Source of the DNA: a virus
Taxonomy: Duplodnaviria; Heunggongvirae; Uroviricota; Caudoviricetes
Reading direction: 5' to 3' (one strand)
IMG/VR virus record: IMGVR_UViG_3300042901_002340
Length of the DNA stretch: 64,000 nucleotides
The notes below the pieces were generated by a model. The model searched no databases. It was not told the DNA's origin and saw only the letters and a list, made by a program, of their open reading frames with translations. The position numbers and the translations under genes are program-made. This document shows positions 6,088 to 52,169 of this stretch, in pieces. Each line of letters starts with the position of its first letter. The stretch's first letter is position 1.

Positions 6088-6302
6088 TAATAAATTATTA
6101 TTTCGGTTAGCTGATATTCTTCAGTTGAAAAATTACCTTCAAATATTTCAGTGGCTCTATCAAACATGTCCTGTTCCGTAAATCCCTCCTCAAAAGGAAC
6201 GCACCCAAGTCTGAGCATTTGAACCCCATCCTCATCAAATTCCAAATCAAAATGTGATAAAGGCAAAGCGTTGTATCTTCTGTTTAAATATATTGCTATC
6301 AT
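6087..6302 (-). CDS. Hypothetical small acidic protein (possible fibre assembly factor)
   Basis: 71-aa ORF that overlaps its fibre-gene neighbours by 1 and 4 nt. Confidence 0.4.
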
Positions 6303-11326: not shown

Positions 11327-11344
11327 TTATTAAATTTTTTTGCG

Positions 11345-12049: not shown

Positions 12050-12052
12050 CTC

Positions 12053-12418: not shown

Positions 12419-12429
12419 ATAAATAAATC

Positions 12430-30429: not shown

Positions 30430-30942
30430 TTAATATTTTCTTCTGGCTTCTCTCCCTATTGTTGTAAGTAAAGCACCAAAAGCAGAATCGAAGTCCGGAT
30501 ATTGTGGCATTTCGTATCTTGTACATAGGATATCAACGTTGCCCTTTCTGTAGAATCCATCAGGACAGCAAACTATAACTTTAGCGTTACTACCTGCACA
30601 TAGGCCTAATTCTAATAGAGTTATTGGACTTTTGGATTCTGGTAGGATGTTAAAGAATATCACATCCGAATCCTCGATGTTGTCAAGTTCCCAGTTTACT
30701 TGGTAGTTGAATACTGAGTTGGATTCTTCCTGTTCCCATGTGTTGTCCCATGAATCCCTTCTTGGGTTGTAAACATCTACGTGATGTGTGAAACCAATCT
30801 CATTATCGAAGGATGATAATCTTCTGTAAGTTTCCTCTTGCCAATCCTCAGAATTTCCCATCTCAATGGTTCCAGCTAGGAACACCGATATTGGGTCTGG
30901 TTGCTGTGTGAAATCGTTGTCAGGTTTTATTAAAGTTACCAT
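30430..30942 (-). CDS. Nucleoside 2-deoxyribosyltransferase-like (NDT/Rcl superfamily) protein
   Basis: VFLAGTIEMG...W near the N-terminus and ...DSDVIFFNILPESKSPITLLELGLCAGSNAKVIV resemble the NDT-like fold. Confidence 0.45.
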   Translation of the reverse strand: MVTLIKPDNDFTQQPDPISVFLAGTIEMGNSEDWQEETYRRLSSFDNEIGFTHHVDVYNPRRDSWDNTWEQEESNSVFNYQVNWELDNIEDSDVIFFNILPESKSPITLLELGLCAGSNAKVIVCCPDGFYRKGNVDILCTRYEMPQYPDFDSAFGALLTTIGREARRKY

Positions 30943-31033: not shown

Positions 31034-32947
31034 TTATTTGTTACCTCTTTTAGGTCCTTCCTGACTAATTGGACTTGATGGAGTTACCTCTGGAGTTTCC
31101 TTAACCTCAGCAGCAGCTTTTCTAGCGTTAACCTGGTTTAGTAATTCCATCCCAAGCAATCCTGAGATTGGTCCATTAGAACCATCTCCTCCGCTGATAA
31201 GGATTTCAGGAATGATCTTGATGTTATTAACCCCGATTGACTCTACAACTTTTAATTGTCCGAAGTTATCAGCACCCATCGCTTGAACTTGTTTCTCGTA
31301 AGCTTCTGCTGTCGCTCTACCGATAGCTTCAATCTTAGAAGCCTCAGCCTTACCTGTTACTTCGATTTGAGTAGCATCTGCTTTTGCCATCAGTTCTTTT
31401 GCTTTTGCCTCCGCTCCAGCTTTGATTTCAATAGCTTTTGCTTCCCCTTCAGATCTCTTAACTTCAGCTTCAGCTTTTCTTTGCGAGATCTCAACTGATT
31501 GCTGTGCACTTACCATTTCTCCTTGCATGTTAGCCAAGGCTTTTGCTGATTCAAGGGTTTTACGTTGATCTTGTGCTTTTTTCTGAGTCTCGAATGTTAC
31601 CTCCTCTTCCTGTGCGATCTTACGATCTGTTAATGTTTTCATTAACGATTCAGGTGGGACGATGTCTCCGATTAATGTATCTACTGCATGTACATTGTAC
31701 TCATCCAGAACTTTTGATATATTCGCCTTTGCAGCATCTTGTCTTTGCTGACGTGTTGATAGGAACGCAATAACATCTGAATCCTGTGCAGAGTTACGGA
31801 AGTAGTTACCAATTGTTGGCTCTAGTACTTGTGATACAAGATTTGACATAGAACCGAATCTAGCAATAACCTTTGGTGCCTCTGTGGAGGGAATGTGAAT
31901 AATTTGAGATACGTCCAGATTGAATGGGAATCCATCCTTAGATCTAACCGTGATGGTGCTTAGATTTTTATCCAAATTGTGGGATTCTGATCTGGCATTT
32001 GCCCAGTTGAGTACCAGATTTGTTGTTGGAACAACTTCAATTTTCTGTGTGTATGGATTGATTGCATATTTACCTGGATCCAATGGCGTAATGCAAACAC
32101 CTTTTTGTCCCTTCTGAACAATATTTCCATGTTTGAATGTATCCCCTGTGGTATCAACACCCTCGTCACCAACATAAGATATAACAACACCAACGTGACC
32201 AATTGGTATCTGTGTCATCTCCTTCTTCTCTATTTCTATTGCCCAAGGATTAATCGAATATGAACCTGCTTGAATAACCTGAACTTGAAGTCCTCTTTGG
32301 CCTCCATTTTCTAAGAATTTATCAAAATCCTGGAAGTTATTATGCCCATCCACCGTTGATCCTGCGATCGATCCGGTTTTAAGAGGTATACCATCCAATG
32401 CAGTTATTACCCCAACCATTCCGTCTTCAATGTAAGTGATATCTGCTTCGTATATCTCGAATATATGTTTGTTGATACGATATACCCCGTTATTAAGATA
32501 TCCGACCTGCTTACCACGTTGACCTCCATTAGTTAAGAATTCTCTAGCTGACTGGTAGTTATCGCAATCAACGTGTCTGGCTAAAATGGACCCTGTTGGG
32601 AGTTGGGCACCGTCCTTAGATGTAATTATTCCAATTTTTCCTTTCTGGATAACCGTTAATGGTGATTGGTCAATTGTGAATTGCCAAGGCCAATAGAACC
32701 AATATAATCCTGGTGCTAATGTATCAGCCTGAAATCCAGGTTCTCCATTAAGAGCAATAATCTTACCATCAGGTAATGTTTTGTTTGCTCCGAAAAGTAC
32801 GAATTTTTTGGTAACTAGACCAATTTTATCCTCTGGGATAATTACCATACCGAAGAATACTCGGAGCGTGAATTTGTAAAATAGTACAGCTAGAATTGGA
32901 ATAATCCACCAAGCATACCCTAATAAATTTGAAATTTGTTCGTGCAT
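31034..32947 (-). CDS. SPFH / band-7 / flotillin-like protein
   Basis: 637 aa. N-terminal TM segment, SPFH-like beta-rich region, and a C-terminal flotillin-like EA-repeat coiled coil (QRKAEAEVKRSEGEAKAIEIKAGAEAKAKELMAKADATQIEVTGKAEASKIEAIGRATAEAYEKQ). Confidence 0.65.
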   Translation of the reverse strand: MHEQISNLLGYAWWIIPILAVLFYKFTLRVFFGMVIIPEDKIGLVTKKFVLFGANKTLPDGKIIALNGEPGFQADTLAPGLYWFYWPWQFTIDQSPLTVIQKGKIGIITSKDGAQLPTGSILARHVDCDNYQSAREFLTNGGQRGKQVGYLNNGVYRINKHIFEIYEADITYIEDGMVGVITALDGIPLKTGSIAGSTVDGHNNFQDFDKFLENGGQRGLQVQVIQAGSYSINPWAIEIEKKEMTQIPIGHVGVVISYVGDEGVDTTGDTFKHGNIVQKGQKGVCITPLDPGKYAINPYTQKIEVVPTTNLVLNWANARSESHNLDKNLSTITVRSKDGFPFNLDVSQIIHIPSTEAPKVIARFGSMSNLVSQVLEPTIGNYFRNSAQDSDVIAFLSTRQQRQDAAKANISKVLDEYNVHAVDTLIGDIVPPESLMKTLTDRKIAQEEEVTFETQKKAQDQRKTLESAKALANMQGEMVSAQQSVEISQRKAEAEVKRSEGEAKAIEIKAGAEAKAKELMAKADATQIEVTGKAEASKIEAIGRATAEAYEKQVQAMGADNFGQLKVVESIGVNNIKIIPEILISGGDGSNGPISGLLGMELLNQVNARKAAAEVKETPEVTPSSPISQEGPKRGNK

Positions 32948-33196: not shown

Positions 33197-33943
33197 TTAA
33201 GTGATTATTTTTGCGGCTATATTCTCAACGAATGCCTTCATATCTGCAGGTGATATCTTATCTACAGAGTCTTCCATGCTATGACATAGAAATAGAACTT
33301 CAAAATCTAAGCATCTCCCATCGGAACAAACAACTGGTGTTTTCTTATCTGTTGGAGGCAATGGATTGATAACAACAGAATCTATACCATTCCTTCTGAA
33401 AATAACAGAATCGTTGAAAGGTGTTCTAACTATTGGACAATCAAAGATGGATTGGATGTGATCTGTTAGTGGCCCTGGGTAGTCTCCAATAAAGAAATCT
33501 TCACCCCCTCTGCCGGTTAACTCGAAATTAAGTACCCATTTGATATCACCAAAATCTCCAGCATTAATTCTTTCGCTCAGATGTTTGGATCCAAATCCTC
33601 CATACTCTTCACCGTCCAATATCGATACGTTTATTGAAGGTACCAATTTCTTAAGTGCAATCGCATTAATAACTGAACAGCTATTATCATTTGCATTGTC
33701 TGATTTTGGATTAACTATATCGTGATGAGCAACAACAAACTGGTTTGAATTACCTAACAGATTGATATTGAACCCGTCAGTTTTCTCATCGACAGGGAAA
33801 CGATCAATCTCGTATTCTATCCCCTCTTTTTTAAGAAGAGACACTATAAACTCCAGCCTGGGGGTAAGTTCCTTCCCATTGGTGAAGATAGGACCTACAT
33901 TTTTTGCGGCACAGAGCCCATAAATTTCATTGTATATACTCAT
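33197..33943 (-). CDS. Zn-dependent peptidase-like protein (M28/M20-like motifs)
   Basis: VVAHHDIV (H.D), ANDNSCSV (GA.DD.SG-like) and ...NDSVIFRRNGIDSV (SDH..F...GIP-like). Confidence 0.4.
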   Translation of the reverse strand: MSIYNEIYGLCAAKNVGPIFTNGKELTPRLEFIVSLLKKEGIEYEIDRFPVDEKTDGFNINLLGNSNQFVVAHHDIVNPKSDNANDNSCSVINAIALKKLVPSINVSILDGEEYGGFGSKHLSERINAGDFGDIKWVLNFELTGRGGEDFFIGDYPGPLTDHIQSIFDCPIVRTPFNDSVIFRRNGIDSVVINPLPPTDKKTPVVCSDGRCLDFEVLFLCHSMEDSVDKISPADMKAFVENIAAKIIT

Positions 33944-35355: not shown

Positions 35356-35385
35356 ATATATGAAATCCTTTCGAATAAAAAAAAT
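35351..35385 (-). promoter_or_regulatory. Conserved promoter element (ctcaaatatatg ... ttcgaataaaaaaaat)
   Basis: Lies upstream of 34972..35355. Confidence 0.45.
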
Positions 35386-35421
35386 CCCGAATGATATATT
35401 CGGGATTTTTTATTTTGGTGA

Positions 35422-37083
35422 TTATTTTAATCTCTCTCTAATTTCTGTTAGCGTGACCTGATTGTGGAATTTACCATCCTCATAGATGGTAAATAATAAA
35501 CCACTGTCTTCCTGCTCCTTAGTGCATTCGGTATTTACCTCCAACTGATCCTTACCATCGTACTTGATCTCGTAAGGTAAGGCATCTGGCCTGTTATTGA
35601 ATACCTGACAGAAACCCTTTAATGATTTTTTAGTACCATTATCTGTTATTGGGTCTTTGTAGATATTATATTCGGTCGTGATGTAATCAGTTTGACCGTC
35701 AGGATCAACACCATTAAATTCCTTAGTAGAGAACCAAGCTCCTTTAGCTGCATATCCAGCAGAGTCTCTTGTTAGCATGACATATGTGTAAGAACCAACC
35801 CCTACAACGACGTTAGTAGATGCAAATCCTTTGGCTTCTGACCTTGTGTAGATAGCAATTTGTCTTTCCAAGTTGATTGAATCACCGTAGATGGCTCCAA
35901 TGTGTGGGTCCAATCTTTTATATCCTTGTTCATTGATAGTTCCACCAAAGATATCCCAAAGTAATTCAATAACACCTTTACCTTCTGGAGTTCCAGTGTG
36001 TAATGTTGATTCGCTACCGCAAATAATATCGACTGGGTCTCCAGAATCAGGACGAATTACAAGTTTACCATCTCTTGCAAGGATTTCCTTTTTAAGTCTT
36101 GGTAGAATGTGCGTAATAACTTTCCATAAATCCATTGTATCAGAAACTGCAGAAAGAATGCCTTTAGGGAATTTTTTCAACCAATCTCGAAGATTAAGGT
36201 ATTCTGCAATTGCTAGGTAGTCCGGAGCATCAACCGATCCCTCGCAAGGGGAATCGAAAGAATAGTAGTTTAGAATCTCATGGTTTAATTTTCCAGATTT
36301 TAATTTTTTCTCGTAGAAGAAAATACCTGTACAAGTCACGCTGTGCTCTGAAGCATTAACGCTATAAACAGGAACCTCATTCTCATCAAAATCGTAGTAG
36401 TATCTTGATGCCGGGATAACATTTAATGTGTCGCTACCAGAATTACTCATGGCGTGTCCTAAACCGATTGCGATTGAGGTGAAAGGATTACCACCTCTAC
36501 TATGAAAATCGTGACACATGAAATCAGCTAACCAAAGATTCTCCGGATCTGTTTTGGTAACCCATTCCACAGCATTCTTTTTGAATCTGTGTGCAATGGT
36601 AGCAGCAGTAGGTAATTGCCAAGCCAATTTAGAAACCAATGTCTCTAAGTAAAGTCCAAGCCATGCATAACCATCAACAGTATTAATACCCGTCATGTGA
36701 GGGATATTTGGTTTGGTGAAGGTTCCTTCTGGGATAGCTTTGATTTTAACTGGAAGGTATCCAAGTTTATGAAGCTCTGTGAAATGCCCAGCATCATAGT
36801 CCATCATAAGATACTTAGCCATATCTCTTCCAAATTTCTCTGCCACCTCCACATGTTTATTGAAGAAAAGCTCCTGAAAGTTACTATGAATGTATCTCCA
36901 AACTAATTGTTGACCTGCTGACATGATGCCGTCTATCGATGGATGCATGTACTTGATGCTTCTTGGAATCCATGTCCAATATTCGGTTGCTGTGTTTTCA
37001 GCTAACATTGCCTTGTGCCCAACTTTATACCCGTCGGATTCGTAAAGGGGGTTGATTTTAAACGTTTCGTTTAGTTTTTCCAT
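35422..37083 (-). CDS. nadV: Nicotinamide phosphoribosyltransferase (NAMPT / NadV-like; could be a Namat-type enzyme)
   Basis: Recalled NAMPT blocks aligned by eye: DGYKVGHKAM (cf. DSYKVTHYKQ), KIKAIPEGT, CHDFHSRGG (cf. LHDFGYRG), LVIRPDSGDPVDII (cf. LIIRPDSGNPLDTV), GAIYGDSIN. Confidence 0.8.
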   Translation of the reverse strand: MEKLNETFKINPLYESDGYKVGHKAMLAENTATEYWTWIPRSIKYMHPSIDGIMSAGQQLVWRYIHSNFQELFFNKHVEVAEKFGRDMAKYLMMDYDAGHFTELHKLGYLPVKIKAIPEGTFTKPNIPHMTGINTVDGYAWLGLYLETLVSKLAWQLPTAATIAHRFKKNAVEWVTKTDPENLWLADFMCHDFHSRGGNPFTSIAIGLGHAMSNSGSDTLNVIPASRYYYDFDENEVPVYSVNASEHSVTCTGIFFYEKKLKSGKLNHEILNYYSFDSPCEGSVDAPDYLAIAEYLNLRDWLKKFPKGILSAVSDTMDLWKVITHILPRLKKEILARDGKLVIRPDSGDPVDIICGSESTLHTGTPEGKGVIELLWDIFGGTINEQGYKRLDPHIGAIYGDSINLERQIAIYTRSEAKGFASTNVVVGVGSYTYVMLTRDSAGYAAKGAWFSTKEFNGVDPDGQTDYITTEYNIYKDPITDNGTKKSLKGFCQVFNNRPDALPYEIKYDGKDQLEVNTECTKEQEDSGLLFTIYEDGKFHNQVTLTEIRERLK

Positions 37084-37959: not shown

Positions 37960-38451
37960 TTATTGGGTTTTATAGATTAATTCGTCTTTTTTGATGTATG
38001 GAATATGTATGTACTCATCCACTAAAGCTTTCTGTTTTTCTAAACATGATTCTAACATTTTAGATTTCTCTATTATAGCGGATTCTGGAACTTTTCTTTC
38101 TCTATTTTTATTTCTTTCCAAGCAAACTTTTAAAGGTGCTTCAACATAAACTAGTGTTATGTGATAACCTTTGTCCTTAAGCATTCCAATAATTCTCAAA
38201 GAGTAAGAGTTATTAACTCCACCAGAGTCCATGCACATAGAAATTCCTTTATCCGATAGTTCACACATTTGTCTTTCCGCTTCTTTAACACTCCATTGGT
38301 GAAGGGGTTCTGGATCCTTTGGGTCATAATCCTTATGTGATTGTTTGATAAGGTCAGCAGAAACTATAGAATAGTCTCCGGCATAGTCTCTATTGACTAT
38401 GGATGTTTTTCCTGATCCAGGTAAGCCGATAAAAAGTATTGCTTTTTTCAT
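37960..38451 (-). CDS. P-loop kinase (AAA_33 / polynucleotide-kinase or zeta-toxin-like fold)
   Basis: Walker A LFIGLPGSGKTSIV at the N-terminus. Size fits a small nucleotide or nucleoside kinase. Confidence 0.5.
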   Translation of the reverse strand: MKKAILFIGLPGSGKTSIVNRDYAGDYSIVSADLIKQSHKDYDPKDPEPLHQWSVKEAERQMCELSDKGISMCMDSGGVNNSYSLRIIGMLKDKGYHITLVYVEAPLKVCLERNKNRERKVPESAIIEKSKMLESCLEKQKALVDEYIHIPYIKKDELIYKTQ

Positions 38452-38519: not shown

Positions 38520-38852
38520 CTAACAATCAATATATTTTATTTCGATGCCTTTCTTGACAGCAAATTCTATTTCCTCTGCGACACCTCTTGAATGATTCCA
38601 GCCTTCCATTTTGTAGACATGTAGCTCATCACTAACTTGAAGAAAGCTTAGACAGAAATTCTGCCAGAATGGCCAGTCTGTTGGCATTTCTTTAAATTGA
38701 GTAAGAGTGTGTCCGTATGTTATGGGTGAAAATGCTACGTTCCCTTTAGCACAAAGATCCGCTGCTATTTTTGATATTTTCTCGAAATTCTCCTCCCTTT
38801 TTTTGTCATCTGGATTGCTGTATGGCGATGCTAGGTAGATTATTTTTCCCAT
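38520..38852 (-). CDS. DUF1937-like protein (NDT-like clan)
   Basis: IYLASPYSNPD...FSPI...EGWNHSRGVAEEIEFAVKKGIEI matches the YLAsPYS / GW..S.GV..EI..A...G DUF1937 pattern as I recall it. Confidence 0.5.
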   Translation of the reverse strand: MGKIIYLASPYSNPDDKKREENFEKISKIAADLCAKGNVAFSPITYGHTLTQFKEMPTDWPFWQNFCLSFLQVSDELHVYKMEGWNHSRGVAEEIEFAVKKGIEIKYIDC

Positions 38853-42141: not shown

Positions 42142-42471
42142 CTATTCTTTATCTATGTTATTAATTATATCACTAATTCCGTCACTCTCTGACATGCCTT
42201 CTAATTTCTTGGCTAATTCTACGAATGCTGTATATCCAATATCCTGCATCTCCATGATGAGATCAACAACTCTAACGTCGACGTTTAATTCCTCTGCACA
42301 TTTTATTGCAGTTTTCTCCTCGAGTTTAACCCCAGATTCAACAAGATCCATTGCCATGTCGAATCCCTTTTCTGTTATGAGTGTTCCTCCTTCCAGAAAA
42401 CCACCCTCTCTTAGTTTGTTACACCAGTAAACAAACAGGAGTGCCTGTTCTTTAAGCTCCTCGAAGTTCAT
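42142..42471 (-). CDS. Hypothetical small acidic protein
   Basis: 109-aa ORF. Confidence 0.45.
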   Translation of the reverse strand: MNFEELKEQALLFVYWCNKLREGGFLEGGTLITEKGFDMAMDLVESGVKLEEKTAIKCAEELNVDVRVVDLIMEMQDIGYTAFVELAKKLEGMSESDGISDIINNIDKE

Positions 42472-42931
42472 TTTTCACAAGTGTTAATGCTTGACCTAAT
42501 AAATTAAGACCTAACCAATATGACGGATCCTCAACTCCTTGTGCATCCTCGTCCATACCAATTCCCCACACATTATCAAGAGGTGAAGCTTCAACAAAAA
42601 ATGCATTCCCTGTTGATAGCATTTCTTCCTTTAAGCCTGGATTCTGTGAAAATTTGGCTAGATTTCCTTCATATACAATAGCTAAGCAATTCCTTTCCCA
42701 AATTGATTTGTCAAAGTTCTTAACCATCCTTCCGAATTTCTTTTGTTCCCTTGGATTTTTTTCCTGCATGATTAATTCTGCAGTTTCTTCATCGCCAAAT
42801 AACAATGCCTTCTGGTGCATCATGTATTGCTCGCATGAATTATATTCTATTTTACCAATGGTCATATTTGCTTTATGCCATTGCGAGTAAATTCCATTCC
42901 AGAAAAACACGTATTTATTTGTTGTTTTCAT
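42452..42931 (-). CDS. NADAR domain protein (YbiA-like, DUF1768; ADP-ribose / NAD-associated N-glycosidase family)
   Basis: FFW....S.W, EQ.MM..KA, KFSQNP.L...LL.TG...VEAS..D..WGIG and LG..L..VR match the NADAR family pattern as I recall it. Confidence 0.65.
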   Translation of the reverse strand: MKTTNKYVFFWNGIYSQWHKANMTIGKIEYNSCEQYMMHQKALLFGDEETAELIMQEKNPREQKKFGRMVKNFDKSIWERNCLAIVYEGNLAKFSQNPGLKEEMLSTGNAFFVEASPLDNVWGIGMDEDAQGVEDPSYWLGLNLLGQALTLVKNELRGA

Positions 42932-43088
42932 ATCTTAAATATAGTTTAGTATAATATTCATCGGGATTTGTTAAATCCTCGAATGTTGCTGTTTCTATTT
43001 TAACTTTTTTTGTGTCCAATTTTAAGGACTCGCACTTTTTGATAATCGAGCTCAATTTAGAATCCTTGATTTCTATTCTTGGCATATG

Positions 43089-43787
43089 TTATATTTTAAG
43101 TTCGTACCTTTTATAAATTCTCCCACCGCCCTCCTTTGGATAGTATGATACATTTAATTCAGTAAATAGATATTTAACCCCCGATTTATCATTAAAAATT
43201 TCGAGTTTCCTCGCTGCTTCAAGTTTATATGGGGTTAAGTCCTTTAGTTCAACCCCGTTTCTGAATATGGATTCCTGACTTTCAATGGAATAACAAAACG
43301 AGATGCTGATATGTGGTGAATTGAGTGCATAGAGATTAACAAAAAGTCTCAGATCAGTATGTAAACAGATTGGGAACTCGTTGGTAACAATTCTAGCAGA
43401 AACTTTGTCTAGAAAATTCTCTATCTCCTCCTTTGTTCCTCTCTTTTGTTTGGCTATGTTCAATTTTTTGAATTCCTCGGACACCACCTTTTTCTCTGTT
43501 TTAAATTCTGACAAATAGTTTTCGTCCGGATCTTCAAGATCACATTCTATTCCCCTCTTCTTGAGTCTATCTATAATGTAAGCAGCATTCTTTGGTGCTA
43601 GAATCATACTAAATAAATAGTTTATTGCACCATCAAATGAATAAAAAGTCATCCCTGGGGAGATGTGATAAGACTCCTCAAGTTTGGCTATCGAAATTTT
43701 CGAGTACCAATCTTTAAGATCAGTTTTATATGGGAATCTTATTGATCCTCCAGCATCTAATATTTCCTCTATGGATTCCTTTCTCAT
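43089..43787 (-). CDS. Hypothetical protein
   Basis: 232-aa ORF. Confidence 0.5.
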   Translation of the reverse strand: MRKESIEEILDAGGSIRFPYKTDLKDWYSKISIAKLEESYHISPGMTFYSFDGAINYLFSMILAPKNAAYIIDRLKKRGIECDLEDPDENYLSEFKTEKKVVSEEFKKLNIAKQKRGTKEEIENFLDKVSARIVTNEFPICLHTDLRLFVNLYALNSPHISISFCYSIESQESIFRNGVELKDLTPYKLEAARKLEIFNDKSGVKYLFTELNVSYYPKEGGGRIYKRYELKI

Positions 43788-43792
43788 GCCTA

Positions 43793-44041
43793 TTATGATG
43801 TAAATTCTAACCAGGTGCCTTCTCGCTGATCGGATTTCATTTCAACTTTTTTCCATCCAGCCTTGATGTACCTGCCTCTTATTATTTCAAGATGTAAATA
43901 ACTCATACCTTCTGGAACCTTAAGAGTTAAAGTTCCCCCTGACCTAAGTTTAGAATTTGATAGATGAAGATCTATCTTTTTTTCAAATCCATCGGCTTCC
44001 TTTTGGAGATTTTCGTCCAATAATTGTGGTGAAACTGCCAT
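43793..44041 (-). CDS. Hypothetical small protein
   Basis: 82-aa ORF. Confidence 0.4.
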   Translation of the reverse strand: MAVSPQLLDENLQKEADGFEKKIDLHLSNSKLRSGGTLTLKVPEGMSYLHLEIIRGRYIKAGWKKVEMKSDQREGTWLEFTS

Positions 44042-44042
44042 A

Positions 44043-45116
44043 TTATACGTATTTATGTGTTTGGTCGTTAATCATAGCAATTGTGCCGGTGGTCAATTGC
44101 TTCAACGTCTCTTTAAAAACTTGTATTGCAGCCGCTACGTCATCTTTATGCACCATCTCTACTGTAGTATGCATATACTTCAACGGACTAGCTACGATCA
44201 CTGTAGGGACGTTTTCAAGGAAGAATGAAACTGTGTCATTTCCATAAGATCCAACAGATAGTTGCAACGGAATTTCTTTTTTCTTAGCAACATCTCTAAC
44301 GATATTGATTAGATCCTTGTGGTTTTGAGACGAGTACTCGATAACCGGACCTGCACCTCCTTTAACATCACCAGATTTGGCTTTGTTCATCTTAGGAGAG
44401 TTTGTGTTATGGGTAACGTCGTGAACCAATGCGATGTCTGGTTTAATTGTTTGAGCAATCAATCTTGCTCCAAATAACCCAACTTCCTCCTGGACAGCAT
44501 TAACTATGTAAAGATCGAATGGTAACACTGTTCCTTCCTCTTTAAGTTCTCTTGCAACTTCAGCAATGATGTAACCACCGATCTTATTGTCTAGTGATCT
44601 ACCCACGTAATATTTGCCCATCTCGAAGAATGGCTGGTCAAACGTGATACAATTTCCAACCTCGACCCCAAGTTTTGCAACCTTCTTTGCTGTGTCAACT
44701 CCAAGATCAACCCAAAGTTCATGAACTTCCGGTCCCATCTCAACTCTTTTTTCTCTAACGTGAATAGCAGGCCATCCAAAAACTCCAGGTACTTTTTTAC
44801 CGTCATGTGTGTGAACAAAAACAGTCATTGATGGAGCAATCATATTGTCTGATCCACCGTTTGTTTTCACTCTAATCATTCCGTTTTCCTCTATCTGCGA
44901 AATTACAAATGCTATCTCGTCGCAGTGGGCTTCCAAAATTACTTTCTTGGTTCCTGTCCCTTTGATTAAACCATATGCTGTTCCGTATGCATCAACTTTC
45001 ATTTCACTAACGAATGGTTTAACATAATCGATCCATATTTTCTGTCCTTCAAATTCTCTTCCAACCGGTGAGAAAGCGTCTAAATACCCTTTTAAAAACT
45101 TTTTATTATCGCTCAT
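44043..45116 (-). CDS. M42 family metallo-aminopeptidase (FrvX / glutamyl aminopeptidase-like)
   Basis: ILEAHCDEIAFVIS matches the M42 AHmDEiG motif. Overall length and layout fit the M42/M20 clan. Confidence 0.65.
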   Translation of the reverse strand: MSDNKKFLKGYLDAFSPVGREFEGQKIWIDYVKPFVSEMKVDAYGTAYGLIKGTGTKKVILEAHCDEIAFVISQIEENGMIRVKTNGGSDNMIAPSMTVFVHTHDGKKVPGVFGWPAIHVREKRVEMGPEVHELWVDLGVDTAKKVAKLGVEVGNCITFDQPFFEMGKYYVGRSLDNKIGGYIIAEVARELKEEGTVLPFDLYIVNAVQEEVGLFGARLIAQTIKPDIALVHDVTHNTNSPKMNKAKSGDVKGGAGPVIEYSSQNHKDLINIVRDVAKKKEIPLQLSVGSYGNDTVSFFLENVPTVIVASPLKYMHTTVEMVHKDDVAAAIQVFKETLKQLTTGTIAMINDQTHKYV

Positions 45117-45140
45117 TTTTATTGATTTTCATTATTATAT

Positions 45141-45174
45141 TGCAAATATATGGCATTATTTCGAGATATTAAAA
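45141..45174 (-). promoter_or_regulatory. Conserved promoter element (tgcaaatatatg ... ttcgagatattaaaat)
   Basis: Lies 25 nt upstream of the start of 44043..45116. Confidence 0.5.
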
Positions 45175-45212
45175 TATTTTTTGATATATATGCATATACA
45201 AAAAATCAAAAT

Positions 45213-45362
45213 ATGAAAAAATTAATAACTGTAAGGATAGACGCAGCGACATATGATCAATACAGAAAGGTGTTGGAAGAAAATGGAATGGATATGAGCA
45301 AAAGAATACGTAATTTTATAGATTCAGAAATAAAAGATCTTGGTGATGGAAAAAATTGTTAA
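45213..45362 (+). CDS. Ribbon-helix-helix (CopG/Arc-like) small DNA-binding protein
   Basis: MKKLITVRIDAATYDQYRKVLEENGMDMSKRIRNFI has the beta-strand then two helices pattern. The ORF-track N-terminal extension is rejected. Confidence 0.45.
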   Translation: MKKLITVRIDAATYDQYRKVLEENGMDMSKRIRNFIDSEIKDLGDGKNC

Positions 45363-46122
45363 ATCATACATATACTCACTCATAGATCCGGTTACTGAGG
45401 AAATAAGATACATAGGAAAAACAGTAAATCCATCACAAAGATTATCTGCTCATATAAAAAGCGGATATAAAAAAGGTAGTCATAAGGAATGCTGGATATA
45501 TGGACTATTAGAGAAAAATCTAAAACCAAAAATGAACATAATTGAGGAATGTTTGGATGATAGCTGGATAGAAAGGGAAAAATATTATATAAGAACGTTA
45601 CCAAATCTAACTAACCATACGGAAGGCGGTGATTCACCTTCCGGTCATAAGATGTCGGAAGAGACTAGAAAAAAAATGTCGGAGAGCAGAAGAGGAGAAC
45701 AAAACTCATTCTTTGGTAAATCACATTCCAATGAATCCAGAAAATTGATCTCGAAATCTATCAAGGAAATTCCAAAGAATGAGGGCTACGGATTTACTGG
45801 TAAAAATCACAAGGAATCATCCAGAGAGATAATATCTAAAAGAGCAAAGGAAAGAGCAAATAGAGGTGAATTACCTAAGCTGCCAATTATGTCAGGTAAG
45901 GATAATCCTGCATCGAAGGAGAGAATTTTCATATCCCCGTCAGGTGAAATATTCATTGTTTATAATTTAAGAAAATTTTGTAAAGAAAACAGCTTATCTC
46001 ACAATATAATATTTAGAAATATAAACAATGGACCTATAGAAAAACCAACGGATAAAAAAACTCTCGATAGACAAAGAACCAAGAGTCTAAATACCATAGG
46101 ATGGGAAGTGATACAGAAATAG
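45346..46122 (+). CDS. GIY-YIG homing endonuclease with NUMOD3-like repeats
   Basis: KSYIYSLIDPVTEEIRYIGKT is the GIY-YIG motif. Repeated H.EETRKKMSESRRG / HSNESRKLISKS / HKESSREIISKRAKE are NUMOD3-like DNA-binding motifs. The track start is TTG at 45340, so I use the ATG at 45346. Confidence 0.75.
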   Translation: MEKIVKSYIYSLIDPVTEEIRYIGKTVNPSQRLSAHIKSGYKKGSHKECWIYGLLEKNLKPKMNIIEECLDDSWIEREKYYIRTLPNLTNHTEGGDSPSGHKMSEETRKKMSESRRGEQNSFFGKSHSNESRKLISKSIKEIPKNEGYGFTGKNHKESSREIISKRAKERANRGELPKLPIMSGKDNPASKERIFISPSGEIFIVYNLRKFCKENSLSHNIIFRNINNGPIEKPTDKKTLDRQRTKSLNTIGWEVIQK

Positions 46123-46704
46123 TTATTTTTTTAGATGTACTATTGTTACCTTACAATCTTTTAGCTCCTCCTTTATTAGGGATTTAACCGTTTTCTCATC
46201 ACCTCCGGCCAATCCACACCCGATAAGGGGGAGTCCGACGTGTCTACCTTTGAATTGGTGGTTTATTTTTCTCATACAGAGTCTAAGTGCATCATAATCA
46301 AGGGGCCTAGCAGTTCCGCCCTCATGATTTAATCCAAACCCATATTGGGTGTAGCTATTAACAACTGCAAGATCAAATTTGCCATTTTCTCCGGTGTATG
46401 TATTAACCTTCCAATCTATCTGACCAAGCTTGTTATAGTCACCCCTATGCTGTTGACCTTCCATTGGAAATTTGTCACACCCAAATGCCCCAGCCATTTG
46501 TGGTGCTATTCCAGCTCCCATGGTACAGAAACAGTTACATCCATGGGTGATCACTTGGAATTTTCCCTGTTGTGCCATGGTTATTAGATTGCCAACTACC
46601 TCCCGATATGCTGGGTGGATTGGCTGACTAATAAGGGATTCTGGCAAACATGACCTGTCACACTCGCCGTTGCAATACATACAACCTCCTATTAGTGTTC
46701 TCAT
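46123..46704 (-). CDS. Macro domain protein (ADP-ribose binding or hydrolysing) with an N-terminal Cys cluster
   Basis: QVITHGCNCFCTMGAGIAPQ matches the macro VNaaN..l.gGgGva / Macro_2 pattern. LPLIGCGLAGGD is the distal macro motif. N-terminus has CMYCNGECDRSC. Confidence 0.55.
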   Translation of the reverse strand: MRTLIGGCMYCNGECDRSCLPESLISQPIHPAYREVVGNLITMAQQGKFQVITHGCNCFCTMGAGIAPQMAGAFGCDKFPMEGQQHRGDYNKLGQIDWKVNTYTGENGKFDLAVVNSYTQYGFGLNHEGGTARPLDYDALRLCMRKINHQFKGRHVGLPLIGCGLAGGDEKTVKSLIKEELKDCKVTIVHLKK

Positions 46705-47009
46705 TATTTAAGGTCTTCCGATTTAGTTGTTCCATCTCTATTGATGTGAACCACAATGTTATCCATGGTTTCTCTTACCCCTTCCTCGTGTCCTTTTTTT
46801 CTAGAATTCGCACTTATTAATGCAACCCCAATTGACAATAGAACCCAACCCACTGCGTTTAGTGGAGCATTCATTTTGAACGAGAAGGGAGAGAATGTGA
46901 TTTCAGTATCGCCAATAAACAGGAATCCTGCTATTACAAAAAGACCCAATAGTATAATTTCTAACATACTTTTCATTTTATTTGATTTTATAAACGTATA
47001 ACGTGTCAA
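46704..47009 (-). CDS. Small membrane protein
   Basis: 101 aa with two TM helices. Confidence 0.4.
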   Translation of the reverse strand: MTRYTFIKSNKMKSMLEIILLGLFVIAGFLFIGDTEITFSPFSFKMNAPLNAVGWVLLSIGVALISANSRKKGHEEGVRETMDNIVVHINRDGTTKSEDLK

Positions 47010-47196
47010 TTTTTTTACCGTCCGTTGTTAATTTGATAGCTGGTTCAATTTTTGTTTTAGATTCTATAAATTCAGAATTACCCCAAATTGTATTACCTAA
47101 AAAAACACCTAAAGCCCCTGCGACAAAAAATACAAAGATGATTATGGTTACGACAAATTTAAAAATTTCGCCGAAAACTTCTTCAGAATTAAACAT
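46978..47196 (-). CDS. Small membrane protein
   Basis: 72 aa with one TM helix. Confidence 0.4.
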   Translation of the reverse strand: MFNSEEVFGEIFKFVVTIIIFVFFVAGALGVFLGNTIWGNSEFIESKTKIEPAIKLTTDGKKIDTLYVYKIK

Positions 47197-47197
47197 A

Positions 47198-48103
47198 TTA
47201 GATAACTTTTAATTGTTTAAGTTTGTGCATCTCATTATCGTTTCTTAATGAGAATTCAGGATCGGACATATCAACATAACTGTTGGTTGTGTAGATACCA
47301 TCGAAGTGTTCATTTAGTGGCTTTAAACCAGCTGAAAAGATTCCATGGGTTACAACAAGGAAAATCTTACCTGTTGCATTTTTTTCTCTGAGTGCTTTAG
47401 CAATCTCGATAAATGTGCGTCCTCCGTCGCAAATATCATCTAAGATAAAGAAGTCTTTATCTAGATCCTCAGGTTTTAAAGGAACATCAGTGTGTGTAAT
47501 CTTGCCAGTCCCAATGTCTCTGTGTTTTGAAGCTATAACTATGTCCTGCTTATATCCAATGGACTCGGCAACATCGTAAACTTTCTTAAGAGCTCCAGCA
47601 TCCGGAGATATTAATCTCATTTTGGAATAATCAGTGCTTCCAGAATTGAAATAGTCACGCAATACAAATGTTAGTAAACCCTGACCATATTGAGTTACCT
47701 TTTTGAATTTTTTGATACATGCCTCAGTCACATCCGAATGCGGGTCAAGTATTGTTACTCTTTTGAATTTCTGTGCATTGATAATAGGAGCAAGAACCTC
47801 TTTGATGTAATTAACACTTCCTTCCTCGAATTTTCTGTCCGATCTCGCACCTAATAGGTATGATATCTCAAGTGAAGTTGCTTTAACTCCAAGCTCTTTA
47901 AGAGCTTTATTTGCACAAATAACCAATTCAAGATCCAAGAATGAAGTTATTCTGGATTTTATTAAAACTGGTTCCATTTTCTCAAACATATCATGTTTGA
48001 GAACTTCACCCTCCAATATGGTGATGGCTTGCTGGCCATCCGGAAATTTGGAGACCTTGAATTTGATACCGTAGCTTAACGGTTCGGAAAGATTTATTAC
48101 CAT
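47198..48103 (-). CDS. Ribose-phosphate pyrophosphokinase (PRPP synthetase)-like protein; could be an ADPR-pyrophosphate synthetase (Adps) type
   Basis: RVTILDPHSDVTEAC matches the PRPP-synthetase DLHA..IQGFF region. FFILDDICDGGRTF matches the PRPP-binding loop VDDMIDTGGT. 301 aa. Confidence 0.65.
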   Translation of the reverse strand: MVINLSEPLSYGIKFKVSKFPDGQQAITILEGEVLKHDMFEKMEPVLIKSRITSFLDLELVICANKALKELGVKATSLEISYLLGARSDRKFEEGSVNYIKEVLAPIINAQKFKRVTILDPHSDVTEACIKKFKKVTQYGQGLLTFVLRDYFNSGSTDYSKMRLISPDAGALKKVYDVAESIGYKQDIVIASKHRDIGTGKITHTDVPLKPEDLDKDFFILDDICDGGRTFIEIAKALREKNATGKIFLVVTHGIFSAGLKPLNEHFDGIYTTNSYVDMSDPEFSLRNDNEMHKLKQLKVI

Positions 48104-48115: not shown

Positions 48116-48862
48116 TTAAGATTCTAATTTGTTCCAGAATTGATTCTTGGCCAATCTTTCATTGATTGATGTGTATAGCTCACTAACCTTCAGTGCTTCT
48201 GTTAGTTTTTCGATAGTGCAACCTCTTTCTGCATAAGGATTGTTAAATCTTTGGTACATACCATCACTACCGAAATGAGGTGTTTCCAGAATCTCAGTTG
48301 GCTCATACATGTCAACGGCACCATCTTTTATCGAGTACTCAACAACAGCTTCGAGTGGTCTATCGTCCTCTCCTGCTTCCTGGTTCATTAGCTGTACCCT
48401 CATTTCAAGAAAAGGAAATGCTTCAGCAATTTTAACACAGTCGTCATAAACATCCTGTACGCTTGGCCACTTTCCTATATTGTAATTACTAGATCCAATT
48501 GTACCGTCCCAGTTGCACCAACCGTGTGGACCTCCAATCCAAGAAGAAACAATTCTGGAGTTGCTTAGGTAGTTAAGTTCAAGAACTCCGTATTTTTTAC
48601 CAGTTGATTCTGTCAAATCCCAGGCACCGTTAAAATCGAGGTTGTGCTTTTCTTTAAGTGTATCTCTGAGATCACTCCATGACACATCCACATCATAAAT
48701 TAGTTTATGGATCTTTTTTTCAAATTCTCTGTCATTGGAACAGAAACTAAATCGATCTGTCATGACATTAATAACCATTGCCTGCTGTTCAGTAACAGGT
48801 TTGCCAACAACAACTAGTGCTGGCCATTTAGGAAGTCCCTTGTTGAATAATTCTTCGTTCAT
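48116..48862 (-). CDS. Hypothetical protein
   Basis: 248-aa ORF. Confidence 0.5.
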   Translation of the reverse strand: MNEELFNKGLPKWPALVVVGKPVTEQQAMVINVMTDRFSFCSNDREFEKKIHKLIYDVDVSWSDLRDTLKEKHNLDFNGAWDLTESTGKKYGVLELNYLSNSRIVSSWIGGPHGWCNWDGTIGSSNYNIGKWPSVQDVYDDCVKIAEAFPFLEMRVQLMNQEAGEDDRPLEAVVEYSIKDGAVDMYEPTEILETPHFGSDGMYQRFNNPYAERGCTIEKLTEALKVSELYTSINERLAKNQFWNKLES

Positions 48863-48878: not shown

Positions 48879-48913
48879 CAAATATAAAAAAAAGATTCGA
48901 AATAAAAAAATTA
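48879..48913 (-). promoter_or_regulatory. Conserved promoter element plus a perfect hairpin terminator (gattcgaaataa-aaaaa-ttatttcgaatc, T6)
   Basis: Lies upstream of 48116..48862 and downstream of 48911..49267. Confidence 0.55.
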
Positions 48914-49156
48914 TTTCGAATCTTTTTTGATCCCGTCCCAAAGCTGTTTAAAGTGATTGTCACCTGTGGGAGTTGATGTTATTATCACCTTGCCCTCAAA
49001 GTCCCCCTCTATTTTAGGAAAGGTCTTCTCGTATGTTTCTGGATGAATTGTATTGATGTAATTTTCTCTGAAATATTCCTCAGATTCAATGCATTTTCTC
49101 AATTCCTTCTTGATCTTTTTTTTCTTATGATTCTCGTTATATTGTCCCATTTGCTT
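48911..49156 (-). CDS. Hypothetical small basic protein (start moved to MGQYNEN)
   Basis: ORF 48911..49267 overlaps 49137..49511 by 130 nt. The internal Met at 49156 removes the overlap. Confidence 0.35.
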   Translation of the reverse strand, partial: KQMGQYNENHKKKKIKKELRKCIESEEYFRENYINTIHPETYEKTFPKIEGDFEGKVIITSTPTGDNHFKQLWDGIKKDSK

Positions 49157-50209: not shown

Positions 50210-50471
50210 CTTTTTGGTATTTATCTAAAAATTTTTGTATTATCGAAGATCCGCTCGATGACTTTCCAACAATCATGTTTAGCTCACCATCCTGTGGGCC
50301 AACCATATTATTCAAAGCCTCTGCCATTCTTTCCTTGAGTGACATGTTAGCTAATCTCTCCTCAGCTGCTTTATTTTCAAGATCAATGAACTCCTTCCAC
50401 TCCGGAGAGGACACGATTTCATTTATGCTATTGTACTTCAACTTCTTCAGATTTAGGTGATTTAATTTCAA
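50202..50471 (-). CDS. Hypothetical small protein
   Basis: 89-aa ORF. Confidence 0.4.
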   Translation of the reverse strand: MKLNHLNLKKLKYNSINEIVSSPEWKEFIDLENKAAEERLANMSLKERMAEALNNMVGPQDGELNMIVGKSSSGSSIIQKFLDKYQKDV

Positions 50472-51282
50472 ACTCCGGAATCATGACATCCATAAATTCT
50501 CTCTCCTGTGTGAATATAGGTGTCGGAATCATTTGCCATTTCAGTCTTTCAACCTGGCCATCTCTACCTTCAATCATTGTTGGTACCTTAGCAATAATGC
50601 CACCTCTTTTTTCTCTGAAGTGATAGTCATTCCAGTTGATTCCTTTCTGAAAAATCATCTCTTGCATGTCCTTCTCCTTCTTGCCATTTAATTCACTTTG
50701 TGAATATAGGCTTTGCGCAACGGATTGGATTGAGTTTCTAGTTCCATCTTGCTGTCTGAAGATGAAATAGTTCTCAACCTCACTTTTTTGTGGAATCTGA
50801 AACACCCTAGCATCGAACTCTGCTAGTTTAAATTTTTCGATCTCTGCTTGACTCATTGTTTGATCCAATATCGAAGATGCTAAACTTGCCATTGGATCAA
50901 CATTGTTCTTAGCATATCTGATCATTCTCAGCTGGTTGAACTTTGCAGTTGCCATAGAAGCTGCAACCGATGCCATTTTTTGTAGATTCCCATCGAACCA
51001 CATTTGAGTGTCTCTCTCTTCGAAATCAGTAATAAGTATACTGATCTCATCTGATTGAACATAGCCAAATTTTGCTCCCTGTATATTCTTACAAAGGTAG
51101 GCGGTGGTCTCGTTCATGTCTGCAATTAAACCTGCATCAAATGGAGATACCAAACCTTTTGTGTAGGTGTGGAAAGCTTTCCCGTCGATTCTGATTATTG
51201 TGTACGTTCTCCGTGGAACATAGTATCTAAAACGGTCTTCGTAGAATTCTTTCATACGATCGCCAAGGCTAAAGATTTTCAT
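50428..51282 (-). CDS. Thg1-like protein (tRNA-His guanylyltransferase family 3'-5' nucleotidyltransferase)
   Basis: TIIRIDGKAFHTYTKG...FGYVQSDEISILI and ..KMASVAASMATAKF match the Thg1/TLP catalytic core (cf. VVVRLDGRNFHRF...AYGQSDEYSFVF, ..KFMTHVASQFASSY, as recalled). Confidence 0.75.
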   Translation of the reverse strand: MKIFSLGDRMKEFYEDRFRYYVPRRTYTIIRIDGKAFHTYTKGLVSPFDAGLIADMNETTAYLCKNIQGAKFGYVQSDEISILITDFEERDTQMWFDGNLQKMASVAASMATAKFNQLRMIRYAKNNVDPMASLASSILDQTMSQAEIEKFKLAEFDARVFQIPQKSEVENYFIFRQQDGTRNSIQSVAQSLYSQSELNGKKEKDMQEMIFQKGINWNDYHFREKRGGIIAKVPTMIEGRDGQVERLKWQMIPTPIFTQEREFMDVMIPEFEIKSPKSEEVEVQ

Positions 51283-51284
51283 AG

Positions 51285-52169
51285 TTAATTTTTTAATTCG
51301 TATAATCCCTCCCTAACTAGAACGCTGTGCAGATCTCTAATTCTAAAGTAGTAACATGCATTTTTTGTTGATCCTCCATAGTAATCATGATCGTAAGATT
51401 CATCAACATCAACACACTCAGCCCATATTTTTTTGTATAGCATGAATGATATATGTGGACAAACCTCGTTGATTATATCGTCGAAGGCACTAAAGTTGGA
51501 TACTGGTGCTTCCCCAGAAACCGTTCCTCCGCCTCCCCAGCAATCTTTCCAATCTCCACCTAGACACCAGGATTGTGAGGTAACTTTTCCATCCCGATCT
51601 GGGCAAGAATGCTTGGATGCAATCTCATCCCTAAAAACCTCCCATGCTAATTTCATTACAGTTTTATGTGTTTGTATCGAAACTTTGACATCCTTCATTT
51701 CTGATAGACTTTCTGATATTTTAGCAAGATCTGGTGTTTCTATTGTTGAATTTGCGATTGATATCGATGAGTTCTTATCCCTTCTTCCTCTATCGTTGTG
51801 CATGCACGCATCAATATCGGGTGTCCAGTAATTGATTACAACCTCAGTATTCTTTCTGATTTGTAACTTATTCAAAAGATCTATAATACCGCCATTCGTT
51901 GAAACGAAAAGATCCAATATAACCTCATCATAATGCGTGGAGCTATTTTGATATTCTCTGATCATCTCAACATCAGGTTTGGTCAGTGAAGCGGATGGAT
52001 ACCTTCTTCTGATCTCGTATCTCTCCCTCAACTTATCAAATTCTATATGAAGAACCCCACCTTTGCTCCTCATGCTTCCTGCTGGCCCCTGTTTATCTTT
52101 AGCCCATGTGGTCTTTCCTGATCCCGGTAAACCAACTGTTATATGTAATTTTTGATTATTCATTCTCAC
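51285..52169 (-). CDS. P-loop kinase (polynucleotide-kinase-like) next to the Thg1-like gene
   Basis: Walker A ITVGLPGSGKTTWAKD at the N-terminus. The downstream region has no clear HAD phosphatase motif. Confidence 0.45.
   Translation of the reverse strand: MRMNNQKLHITVGLPGSGKTTWAKDKQGPAGSMRSKGGVLHIEFDKLRERYEIRRRYPSASLTKPDVEMIREYQNSSTHYDEVILDLFVSTNGGIIDLLNKLQIRKNTEVVINYWTPDIDACMHNDRGRRDKNSSISIANSTIETPDLAKISESLSEMKDVKVSIQTHKTVMKLAWEVFRDEIASKHSCPDRDGKVTSQSWCLGGDWKDCWGGGGTVSGEAPVSNFSAFDDIINEVCPHISFMLYKKIWAECVDVDESYDHDYYGGSTKNACYYFRIRDLHSVLVREGLYELKN

Follow-up and report, generated by a model that had tools for sequence, protein, structure and literature searches.

The stretch of DNA considered here, IMG/VR virus record IMGVR_UViG_3300042901_002340 (Caudoviricetes), is 64,000 nucleotides long (the window) and carries genes for two ADP-ribose-processing enzymes: a NADAR protein of the YbiA type (159 amino acids (aa), 42452..42931) and a macro-domain protein (193 aa, 46123..46704), both on the minus strand. 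An earlier note on this DNA had named both genes and had proposed that the pair reverses DarT-type ADP-ribosylation of nucleic acid or processes signals derived from ADP-ribose (ADPR). Its coordinates are exact, both of its domain assignments hold in profile searches and structural models, and the gap between the genes, which it gave as within about 4 kilobases (kb), is 3.2 kb. That note lacked the context, namely two further genes of the minus strand, one like Adps (47198..48103) and one like Namat (35422..37083), which most likely place the NADAR and macro genes in a module of the NARP1 type. NARP1 is made up of Adps and Namat, rebuilds NAD+ from ADPR and nicotinamide after the action of host NADases, and is found in only about 4% of phage genomes (PMC13464706). 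Together with a nucleoside 2-deoxyribosyltransferase-like gene (30430..30942, minus strand), the window genes follow the order Adps, macro, NADAR, Namat, deoxyribosyltransferase-like, which is the order of a compact five-gene operon seen in relatives. The five genes are spread over 17.7 kb, with 12.7 kb from Adps to Namat, and are broken up by a homing endonuclease, peptidases and open reading frames (ORFs) without an assigned family.

The NADAR ORF matches the Pfam NADAR profile (PF08719) with an E-value of 5.5e-49 and 167 bits (cut-off 35.1), and NCBIfam TIGR02464 with 141.8 bits (cut-off 73.7). Its AlphaFold model, which has a predicted local distance difference test (pLDDT) score of 80.7, has two significant matches in the Protein Data Bank (PDB) and no others: 8BAU, the ADP-ribosyl (ADPr) complex of the P. 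nicotianae NADAR (PnNADAR), with a query-normalized template-modelling score (TMq) of 0.83, and E. coli YbiA, 2B3W, with 0.73. In a HMMER alignment to 8BAU, residues E34, K41, R68, W78, E114, D119 and W122 of the window protein correspond to PnNADAR E43, K50, R79, W89, E125, D130 and W133, whose roles in ADPR binding and catalysis were described by Schuller et al. (PMC11543638); the active-site comparison that the earlier note had suggested thus finds the complete set of residues in place. Across 31 distinct relatives, six of the seven never vary, and W122 is retained in 29. Position 114 is a glutamate, the YbiA-type state, at the position of PnNADAR E125 that defines the subfamilies; the DarT1-associated (DarG1) NADARs have an aspartate there and the T4-type phage NADARs a histidine (PMC11543638). 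The NADAR profile spans residues 12-157 of 159, so that this minimal core has no room for the basic N-terminal extension proposed to form the single-stranded DNA (ssDNA) groove of the DarT1-associated NADARs.

The NADAR is also better conserved than its partners. Over 11 loci picked by macro similarity, its median identity to the window protein is 72%, compared with 53% for the macro protein, 46% for Adps and 45% for Namat, and more than 120 metagenome clusters hold a NADAR that is at least 75% identical to that of the window. This conservation indicates either an unusually strong constraint or a recent horizontal spread. With respect to substrates, members of all four NADAR families tested so far remove ADPr from guanine (G-ADPr) in vitro (PMC12945103), so guanine-ADPr hydrolysis is not diagnostic of an anti-DarT role. 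Members of the YbiA-type and 'NADAR' families also strip cytosine-ADPr, from DNA as well as RNA, and none acts on thymine (PMC11125620, PMC12945103).

In the macro protein, residues of about 31-193 form a macro fold like that of Adpp, Poa1p and BT1257, and residues 1-30 form an extension with four cysteines (Cys4). Its score against the Pfam Macro profile (PF01661), 16.7 bits, lies below the gathering score of 22, and the divergent clade to which it belongs is covered poorly by this model; against phrog_335 the E-value is 4e-41. By sequence, its PDB matches are BT1257, SCO6735, TARG1 and Poa1p, and its AlphaFold model (pLDDT 85.7) is matched by Foldseek with a probability of 1.0 to BT1257, TARG1, Poa1p and DarG, with target-normalized template-modelling scores (TMt) of 0.64-0.77. 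Two loops characteristic of the fold are present, namely MGAGIAP, a phosphate loop of the GxG(I/L)A type, and IGCGLAGG, the second loop. Of the characterized macro proteins, Adpp is of particular relevance, as 15% of NARP1 operons carry this protein, which dephosphorylates ADPR-1''-phosphate for use by NARP1 (the NARP1-AP system; Osterman et al., bioRxiv 10.64898/2026.01.28.702374). The window protein is 35% identical over 167 aa (E = 3e-19) to the Adpp of Vibrio phage Gary, KNV71_gp137, and has all the residues that are invariant across its own homologues and the Adpp orthologue of River4. Its HGCNC segment aligns with HSCNC of Poa1p (an H-x-C-N-C motif), and H54 and T61 correspond to Poa1p H23 and S30, the two residues that were mutated for the deposited Poa1p structures. 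The gene lies within two genes of Adps, from which it is separated by two small ORFs, and so falls inside the published detection rule for Adpp; Namat is 9 kb off. From the homology to Adpp and the gene position, we infer that the macro protein is an Adpp-like ADPR-1''-phosphate phosphatase.

The earlier note had likened the macro protein to DarG, which removes ADPr from thymine in DNA, and this part of its proposal is not borne out. The NCBIfam DarG model NF048014 gives 18.7 bits against a cut-off of 250, and BLASTP against AdfM of phage PhiKZ (gp104) finds no significant similarity (E = 0.026 over 32 residues). Alanine 166 occupies the position of the catalytic Asp125 of TARG1. In TARG1, DarG and AdfM, a catalytic lysine stands at the end of a hairpin strand (TARG1 K84, TaqDarG K80, AdfM K78); the predicted hairpin strand of the window protein ends in NSYTQ120, the glutamine being invariant in the family. 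As MAFFT and HMMER alignments conflict in that region, it is from the predicted secondary structure that Gln120 would replace the catalytic lysine. With the 35% identity to Adpp, these features make an anti-DarT2 role of the macro protein unlikely.

The N-terminal cysteine cluster of the macro protein (C8-x2-C11-x3-C15-x3-C19; coding region 46648..46683, minus strand) had been singled out as atypical, and it is indeed both real and unusual. It is conserved in two sub-lineages: the close homologues keep the motif GCMYCxGECxxxC (C8, C11, C15 and C19) followed by PIHPAY, and a second, more distant subgroup has the longer form HCWYCEHGPCxGxCKxDxCQESP. Its occurrence is otherwise sporadic, as it is found in five of 56 distinct macro relatives, all five of them linked to NARP1 genes, and the closest macro relative in IMG/VR, on a 434-kb contig, does not have the cluster. 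A Pfam scan of the Cys-rich N-termini of 30-40 residues gave no match, and AlphaFold gave no confident model of the segment (low pLDDT). The four cysteines could possibly form a metal-binding knuckle, and the extension is probably dispensable for catalysis. As for the translation start, the second subgroup has a tryptophan in place of the internal methionine, so the first cysteine is translated and the ATG at 46704, which overlaps the stop codon of the preceding ORF by one base, is the start; Met9 was rejected as the start on the same ground. A Shine-Dalgarno-like AGGAGG does stand 4 bases ahead of the Met9 codon (46678..46690, minus strand), and a second, shorter product from Met9 is possible.

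The product of the Adps-like gene is a homologue of phosphoribosyl pyrophosphate (PRPP) synthetases that matches phrog_619 (E = 6e-63) and is 38% identical (E = 2e-36) to the structurally characterized Adps of Vibrio phage ICP1 (PMC13586617). With the latter as reference, it has the remodelled PP-loop DDICDG and keeps the equivalents of R87, F92, H121, D161 and K185, its K193 being the counterpart of the catalytic beta-hairpin K185. It falls under all NCBIfam cut-offs for PRPP synthetases (PRPS), and from these sequence features it is probably an ADP-ribose pyrophosphokinase. The Namat-like protein (553 aa), a nicotinamide ADP-ribose transferase homologue encoded 5.4 kb downstream of the NADAR gene, matches the structures of SPbetaL1 Namat (9W5X/9W5W; PMC12774641) with an E-value of 9e-96. 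Among other chains of the Nampt family the best E-value is 7e-35, and that of the human, mouse and rat Nampt is about 1e-23. The catalytic R306 is conserved. The adenine selectivity clamp of Namat consists of Arg/Lys/Tyr in the clamp loop (SCL) and two aromatic residues in the clamp helix (SCH) (PMC12774641); the window protein has Lys44 in the loop, and a tyrosine and a methionine in the helix where SPbetaL1 Namat has F392 and Y396. A classical PRPP synthetase with NadV, as in a NARP2-like arrangement, was considered and rejected, as neither protein reaches the curated cut-offs and the two are far more similar to Adps and Namat, respectively. No NMNAT was found among the window ORFs scanned.

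The neighbourhoods of relatives were compared in two sets of loci, with partners counted within 10 kb in both. The macro-centred set, drawn from IMG/VR, comprises 67 distinct loci whose macro protein is 47-82% identical to that of the window; Adps is found in 40 of them, Namat in 41, the fifth gene in 26 and NADAR in 18, and the trio of Adps, NADAR and Namat is complete in 13. In the majority, the start of Adps lies 0.8-1.8 kb upstream of the macro gene, with both in the same orientation; Namat shares this orientation and usually lies downstream. About 60% of the close macro relatives sit in the position between Adps and Namat. In the NADAR-centred set (32 loci with relatives of the window NADAR), the macro gene and Namat are each present in 23, and Adps and the deoxyribosyltransferase-like gene each in 20.

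Some of these loci (numbered with an L) show the arrangement in condensed form. For instance, L026 is a compact operon of Adps (8425-9360), macro (9360-10001), NADAR (10001-10474), Namat (10559-12076) and the fifth gene (12063-12533), with overlapping stop and start codons at three of the four junctions. In L014 the macro and NADAR genes are adjacent, with overlapping stop and start codons, and in L010 they are fused into a single protein of 313 aa (P0047), encoded directly after Adps and followed by a deoxyribosyltransferase-like gene and Namat. The fusion in one relative and the adjacency in others thus support the functional link between NADAR and macro that had been presumed from their proximity. 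The fifth gene of the window encodes a protein of 170 aa with a match to Pfam Nuc_deoxyri_tr2 (E = 7.8e-34); it is 44-53% identical to the products of the genes that follow Namat in L010 and L026 and is orthologous to the fifth gene of those compact operons. A separate arrangement is found in Escherichia phage phi92 (L002, 6962..8528), where gp186, annotated as a 'putative orotate phosphoribosyltransferase' and in fact Prs/Adps-like, lies directly upstream of gp185, annotated as a 'phosphatase', which is homologous to the macro protein of the window (38% identity). The phi92 pair lies amid genes of the tellurite-resistance (Ter) type, with no adjacent Namat, and the same Ter-gene neighbourhood is seen in L010.

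These data suggest, with a probability that we would place at about 0.6, that the NADAR and macro proteins are accessory 'feeder' hydrolases of a dispersed NAD+ reconstitution module of the NARP1 type. By homology to the characterized enzymes, Adps would convert free ADPR and ATP to ADPR pyrophosphate (ADPR-PP), from which Namat would, with nicotinamide, restore NAD+ after host NADase defences have cleaved it. The macro protein, following the logic of NARP1-AP, would convert ADPR-1''-phosphate, a product of RES-type NADases that NARP1 is not able to use, to ADPR. The NADAR would cleave an N-glycosidic ADPR conjugate and so release free ADPR for NARP1, a step that is less certain than that of the macro protein and is proposed on account of the embedding of the gene in the operon, the gene fusion and the intact active site. 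Such a conjugate could be a guanine or cytosine base of nucleic acid that carries ADPR, or else a soluble derivative of ADPR with an N-linkage. Since NADARs strip guanine and cytosine ADPr, ADP-ribosylated nucleic acid is a plausible substrate, and the ADPR released from it could be recycled; a soluble derivative would also fit, given the fusion to an enzyme of soluble metabolites and the metabolic operon. The processing of soluble ADPr derivatives was predicted by Iyer, Burroughs and Aravind (PMC9503650), and there is precedent in Adpp and RyDEP, both inserted into NARP1 loci, each of which turns an immune-derived ADPR derivative into ADPR (bioRxiv 10.64898/2026.01.28.702374, 10.64898/2026.05.28.727677). 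The secondary suggestion of the earlier note, that ADPR derivatives are processed, is thus supported.

A number of observations weigh against assigning the two enzymes to NARP1. The analysis as a whole is computational and consists of sequence comparison and predicted structures. To our knowledge, the activities demonstrated for NADARs are limited to base-linked ADPr in nucleic acids or to riboflavin intermediates, and we know of no demonstration that a soluble immune signal is a NADAR substrate. At 21 of the 67 macro-centred loci, none of Adps, NADAR and Namat is found within 10 kb, and around the closest cultured macro homologue, that of Cellulophaga phage phi17:2, the approximately 29 kb examined contain no gene annotated as part of NARP1; hence, the macro family is not obligately tied to NARP1. 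The Adps-like and Namat-like genes of the window are 10.1 kb apart, farther than the 'close proximity' of the published NARP1 definition, and a methionine replaces the second aromatic residue of the Namat selectivity clamp.

Among the alternatives, the one with the most in its favour, and which we nevertheless regard as rather unlikely, is that the NADAR is a counter-defence protein of the AdfN type, which frees phage DNA of DarT1-type guanine ADPr in a role independent of NAD+ reconstitution. Each of the three phage NADARs tested neutralizes DarTG1 defence during infection, and those of Bas32 and Bas60 also neutralize DarT1 alone; they come from unrelated clades (PMC11825919). G-ADPr removal in vitro is known for members of all four NADAR families, and the catalytic residues of the window protein are intact. 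On the other hand, Glu114 sets the window NADAR apart from both the DarG1 and the T4 types, its 159-aa core lacks the N-terminal DNA-groove extension, and YbiA and the T4 NADAR, which are active in vitro, do not rescue cells from DarT1 (PMC11125620). Neither the placement between macro and Namat nor the fusion to an Adpp-like macro protein is explained by such a role. The two proposals overlap in part, as the ADPR released from DNA could still enter NARP1, and an anti-DarT1 role of the NADAR is possible and compatible with its serving as a feeder hydrolase. A second alternative, the main idea of the earlier note, is that the macro protein acts as a thymine-ADPr DNA hydrolase like DarG2 or AdfM, so that the pair covers both DarT classes; we regard it as very unlikely. 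It draws on the fold clade, which includes DarG (Foldseek 5M3E, E = 2.8e-7), and on the existence of a phage macro protein with this activity, AdfM (PMC13309987); besides the failed DarG model, the non-significant similarity to PhiKZ AdfM and the glutamine that would occupy the catalytic lysine position, it is countered by the profile search, which ranks BT1257, TARG1, SCO6735 and Poa1p above DarG, and by a gene position that is that of Adpp in NARP1-AP operons. Of the anti-DarT-like pair proposed in the earlier note, the notion of two ADPR-processing enzymes stands, but a place in a NARP1-type pathway is more likely than a dedicated pair for the repair of ADP-ribosylated DNA.

A role in phage RNA repair has somewhat more to commend it than the DarG2-like reading, and we still judge it improbable. 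Both enzymes would clear ADPR by-products, with a 2'-phosphotransferase of the KptA/Tpt1 type giving ADPR-1''-2''-cyclic phosphate and then ADPR-1''-phosphate, on which the macro protein would act as Poa1p does in yeast tRNA splicing. Poa1p is the closest homologue of known function according to Osterman et al. (bioRxiv 10.64898/2026.01.28.702374), and Iyer et al. had predicted that certain Macro and NADAR proteins of phages act in this way (PMC9503650). A Thg1-like gene (tRNA-His guanylyltransferase family, 50428..51282) and an adjoining P-loop kinase-like gene (51285..52169), both on the minus strand, lie 3.7 kb upstream of the macro gene. Of the 32 NADAR loci, 10 carry Thg1, and six of these (five distinct; among them L018, L019, L020, L023 and L040) have it between NADAR and Namat. 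Yet KptA/Tpt1, an RNA ligase and a 2H phosphoesterase were not found among the window ORFs scanned, and it is with Adps and Namat, rather than with genes for RNA repair, that the association is strongest and most consistent. Least credible of all is that the NADAR is a YbiA-type N-glycosidase of reactive riboflavin-pathway intermediates, engaged in metabolic damage control unrelated to ADPR. The protein does exceed the cut-off of TIGR02464, a model named 'riboflavin biosynthesis intermediates N-glycosidase', and one Escherichia phage homologue is annotated next to GTP cyclohydrolase II, but no riboflavin genes turned up in that part of the window which was scanned, the steady partners are enzymes of ADPR and NAD+, a relative is fused to a macro domain, and the residues that contact ADPR in 8BAU are kept.

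The reading of NADAR and macro as NARP1 feeder hydrolases can be set beside the systems already described. The NARP1-AP operons of Vibrio phage Gary and other Thalassavirus phages likewise have Adps upstream of macro and Namat in the same orientation, and the family-invariant macro residues are shared. Unlike those three-gene operons, the window has its genes over 12.7 kb, adds the NADAR and the deoxyribosyltransferase-like gene, and has two small ORFs for putative membrane proteins between Adps and macro; the Cys4 extension is also missing from Gary Adpp. The AdfN proteins (T4 gp30.3, Bas32 and Bas60; Johannesman et al. 2025) are, like the window protein, stand-alone phage NADARs with conserved catalytic glutamate and lysine, and G-ADPr hydrolysis in vitro would be expected of it as of them. 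The window NADAR is of another subfamily than the T4 type, with glutamate instead of histidine, and tblastn with it did not detect a T4-type homologue; the Bas32 and Bas60 proteins come from other NADAR clades (PMC11825919). In contrast to AdfN, NADARs of the window type are embedded in, or fused into, an NAD+ reconstitution operon. Tandem NADAR-Macro proteins and phage NADARs next to NadV or NadM were described computationally (de Souza & Aravind 2012; PMC9503650), with the same fusion, co-occurrence, 'NadV' neighbourhood and prediction of soluble ADPr derivatives. Both studies predate NARP1, however, and accordingly took 'NadV' and PRPS for classical salvage; they were purely computational and gave no specific operon model or substrate. 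RyDEP, a glycosidase with an RyR domain in the NARP1 loci of mycobacteriophages (Lopez Rivera et al. 2026, bioRxiv 10.64898/2026.05.28.727677), follows the logic proposed here for the NADAR, in that an immune ADPR derivative is converted to linear ADPR and then to NAD+. The two folds are unrelated, and RyDEP cuts the O-glycosidic ribose-ribose bonds of 2'/3' cyclic ADPR (cADPR), whereas NADARs cut N-glycosidic bonds. Finally, DarG of T. aquaticus and PhiKZ gp104 share the macro fold clade with the window protein (Foldseek E about 3e-7), which differs from them in lacking the C-terminal domain that binds DarT, as well as in the points given above.

The block contains further genes, some of which travel with the module. 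Between Adps and macro lie the two small ORFs, of 72 aa (46978..47196) and 90 aa (46704..46976), both on the minus strand, which are predicted to encode membrane proteins from their hydrophobic stretches alone. Gene calls in independent assemblies include both, L011 and L014 have them at the same place between Adps and macro, and by tblastn they are found in 2 and 5 of the 32 NADAR loci, respectively. Directly upstream of Adps, after a gap of 12 bases, is an ORF of 248 aa (48116..48862, minus strand) with a conserved position in L011, L016 and L017; it has no match in Pfam, PHROG, NCBIfam or PADLOC and may be an uncharacterized member of the module. Terminator-like hairpins at 48928..48888 and 35379..35411 (18 and 15 pairs, with A- and T-runs on both sides, a bidirectional form) are the strongest and longest two in the 14.5 kb scanned. 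They enclose the stretch that begins with the 248-aa ORF and Adps and runs as far as Namat, which is suggestive only. A scan for sigma-70-like promoters gave no enrichment over shuffles. Downstream of NADAR, a DUF1937/DUF4406 gene (38520..38852, minus strand; Pfam E = 1.4e-14) encodes a second deoxyribosyltransferase-like fold and is present in 11 of the 32 NADAR loci; it adjoins a gene for a P-loop kinase of the AAA_33/Zeta-toxin type (37960..38451, minus strand; Pfam E = 6.4e-14), retained in L011, L015 and L016.

A GIY-YIG/NUMOD3 homing endonuclease (45340..46122, plus strand), assigned by Pfam, lies between the macro gene and an M42 aminopeptidase gene and is outside the system; the syntenic relative L011 (211 kb) has no such gene there, which points to a recent insertion that helped to break up the operon. 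A second GIY-YIG homing endonuclease gene is found at 1350..2126 (minus strand). The M42 aminopeptidase gene (44043..45116, minus strand; Pfam E = 5.4e-68), between macro and NADAR, is conserved in the close clade only (L011, L013 and L014; 3 of the 32 NADAR loci). An M28 peptidase (33197..33943) and a 637-aa SPFH/Band-7 protein (31034..32947), both on the minus strand, are also interspersed with the NAD+ genes. An AAA_28-type P-loop protein is encoded at 26608..27192 (plus strand; E = 1.2e-13); that Pfam family includes the ribosylnicotinamide-kinase domain of NadR, and the protein may provide a further NAD+ salvage function. There is no SIR2 gene in the window. In relatives, SIR2 genes occur near macro and NADAR in L013 (13446..14444) and L014 (4400..5128), and the SIR2 of L013 is fused to a DUF1937 domain in a locus where no Adps or Namat was seen over its 19 kb.

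The window itself is recognizable as phage DNA by a Gp23-like capsid protein and by fibre proteins with collagen repeats; the latter presumably are the collagen triple-helix-repeat proteins encoded at 6299..9775 (E = 1e-39) and 9878..11326 (E = 1e-12), both on the minus strand. It has no tRNA genes. A ferritin-like protein (60812..61384) and an Endonuclease_NS, a non-specific DNA/RNA endonuclease (2133..2837), both on the minus strand, are also encoded. At the nucleotide level, the region had no match among 50,697 phage records, which points to a phage without a close cultured relative. Identical copies of the NADAR and macro proteins are present on metagenome contigs of approximately 430 kb, and a related IMG/VR contig measures 434,509 bp. 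A jumbo phage of about 430 kb that has not been cultured is the probable source.

Much of what is assembled here has been published in parts, including the protein families, NARP1-AP and phage NADAR counter-defence, as well as, from computational work in 2012 and 2022, the Macro-NADAR fusion and the NADAR-'NadV' neighbourhood. New with respect to the literature searched are the five-gene variant of NARP1, in which a highly conserved NADAR is embedded and a deoxyribosyltransferase-like gene is present, any role assigned to these two enzymes, and the Cys-rich extension on an Adpp-like macro protein; NADAR is not mentioned in the searched literature on NARP1 accessory enzymes. A more specific proposal, which we offer tentatively and hold to be somewhat less probable than its negation, is that the NADAR, possibly with the fifth gene, is a further extension of NARP1, in which an N-linked ADPR immune product is hydrolysed and its ADPR recycled to NAD+. 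It would then be a third class of feeder beside Adpp and RyDEP. Candidate products are histidine-ADPR, an N-linked cyclic ADPR signal, a base-ADPR conjugate, and ADP-ribosylated DNA or RNA, and the Cys4 knuckle might be peculiar to these operons, with a metal-dependent function in regulation or docking.

NAD+ depletion and ADPR chemistry are central to bacterial immunity, and the NARP pathways of phages are the main known metabolic countermeasure. Adpp and RyDEP have each exposed a host defence product that was previously unknown. A NADAR that sits in NARP1 operons, is more conserved than its partners and is sometimes fused to the macro protein points in the same way to a third input into the pathway, possibly a class of N-linked ADPR immune products that has gone unrecognized. 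For annotation, the lesson is that the labels 'PRPP synthetase', 'NadV', 'phosphatase' and 'YbiA' in large phages can mask a single module, even where its genes are scattered. If the proposal is true, such a phage would destroy an immune product and at once recycle it to NAD+.

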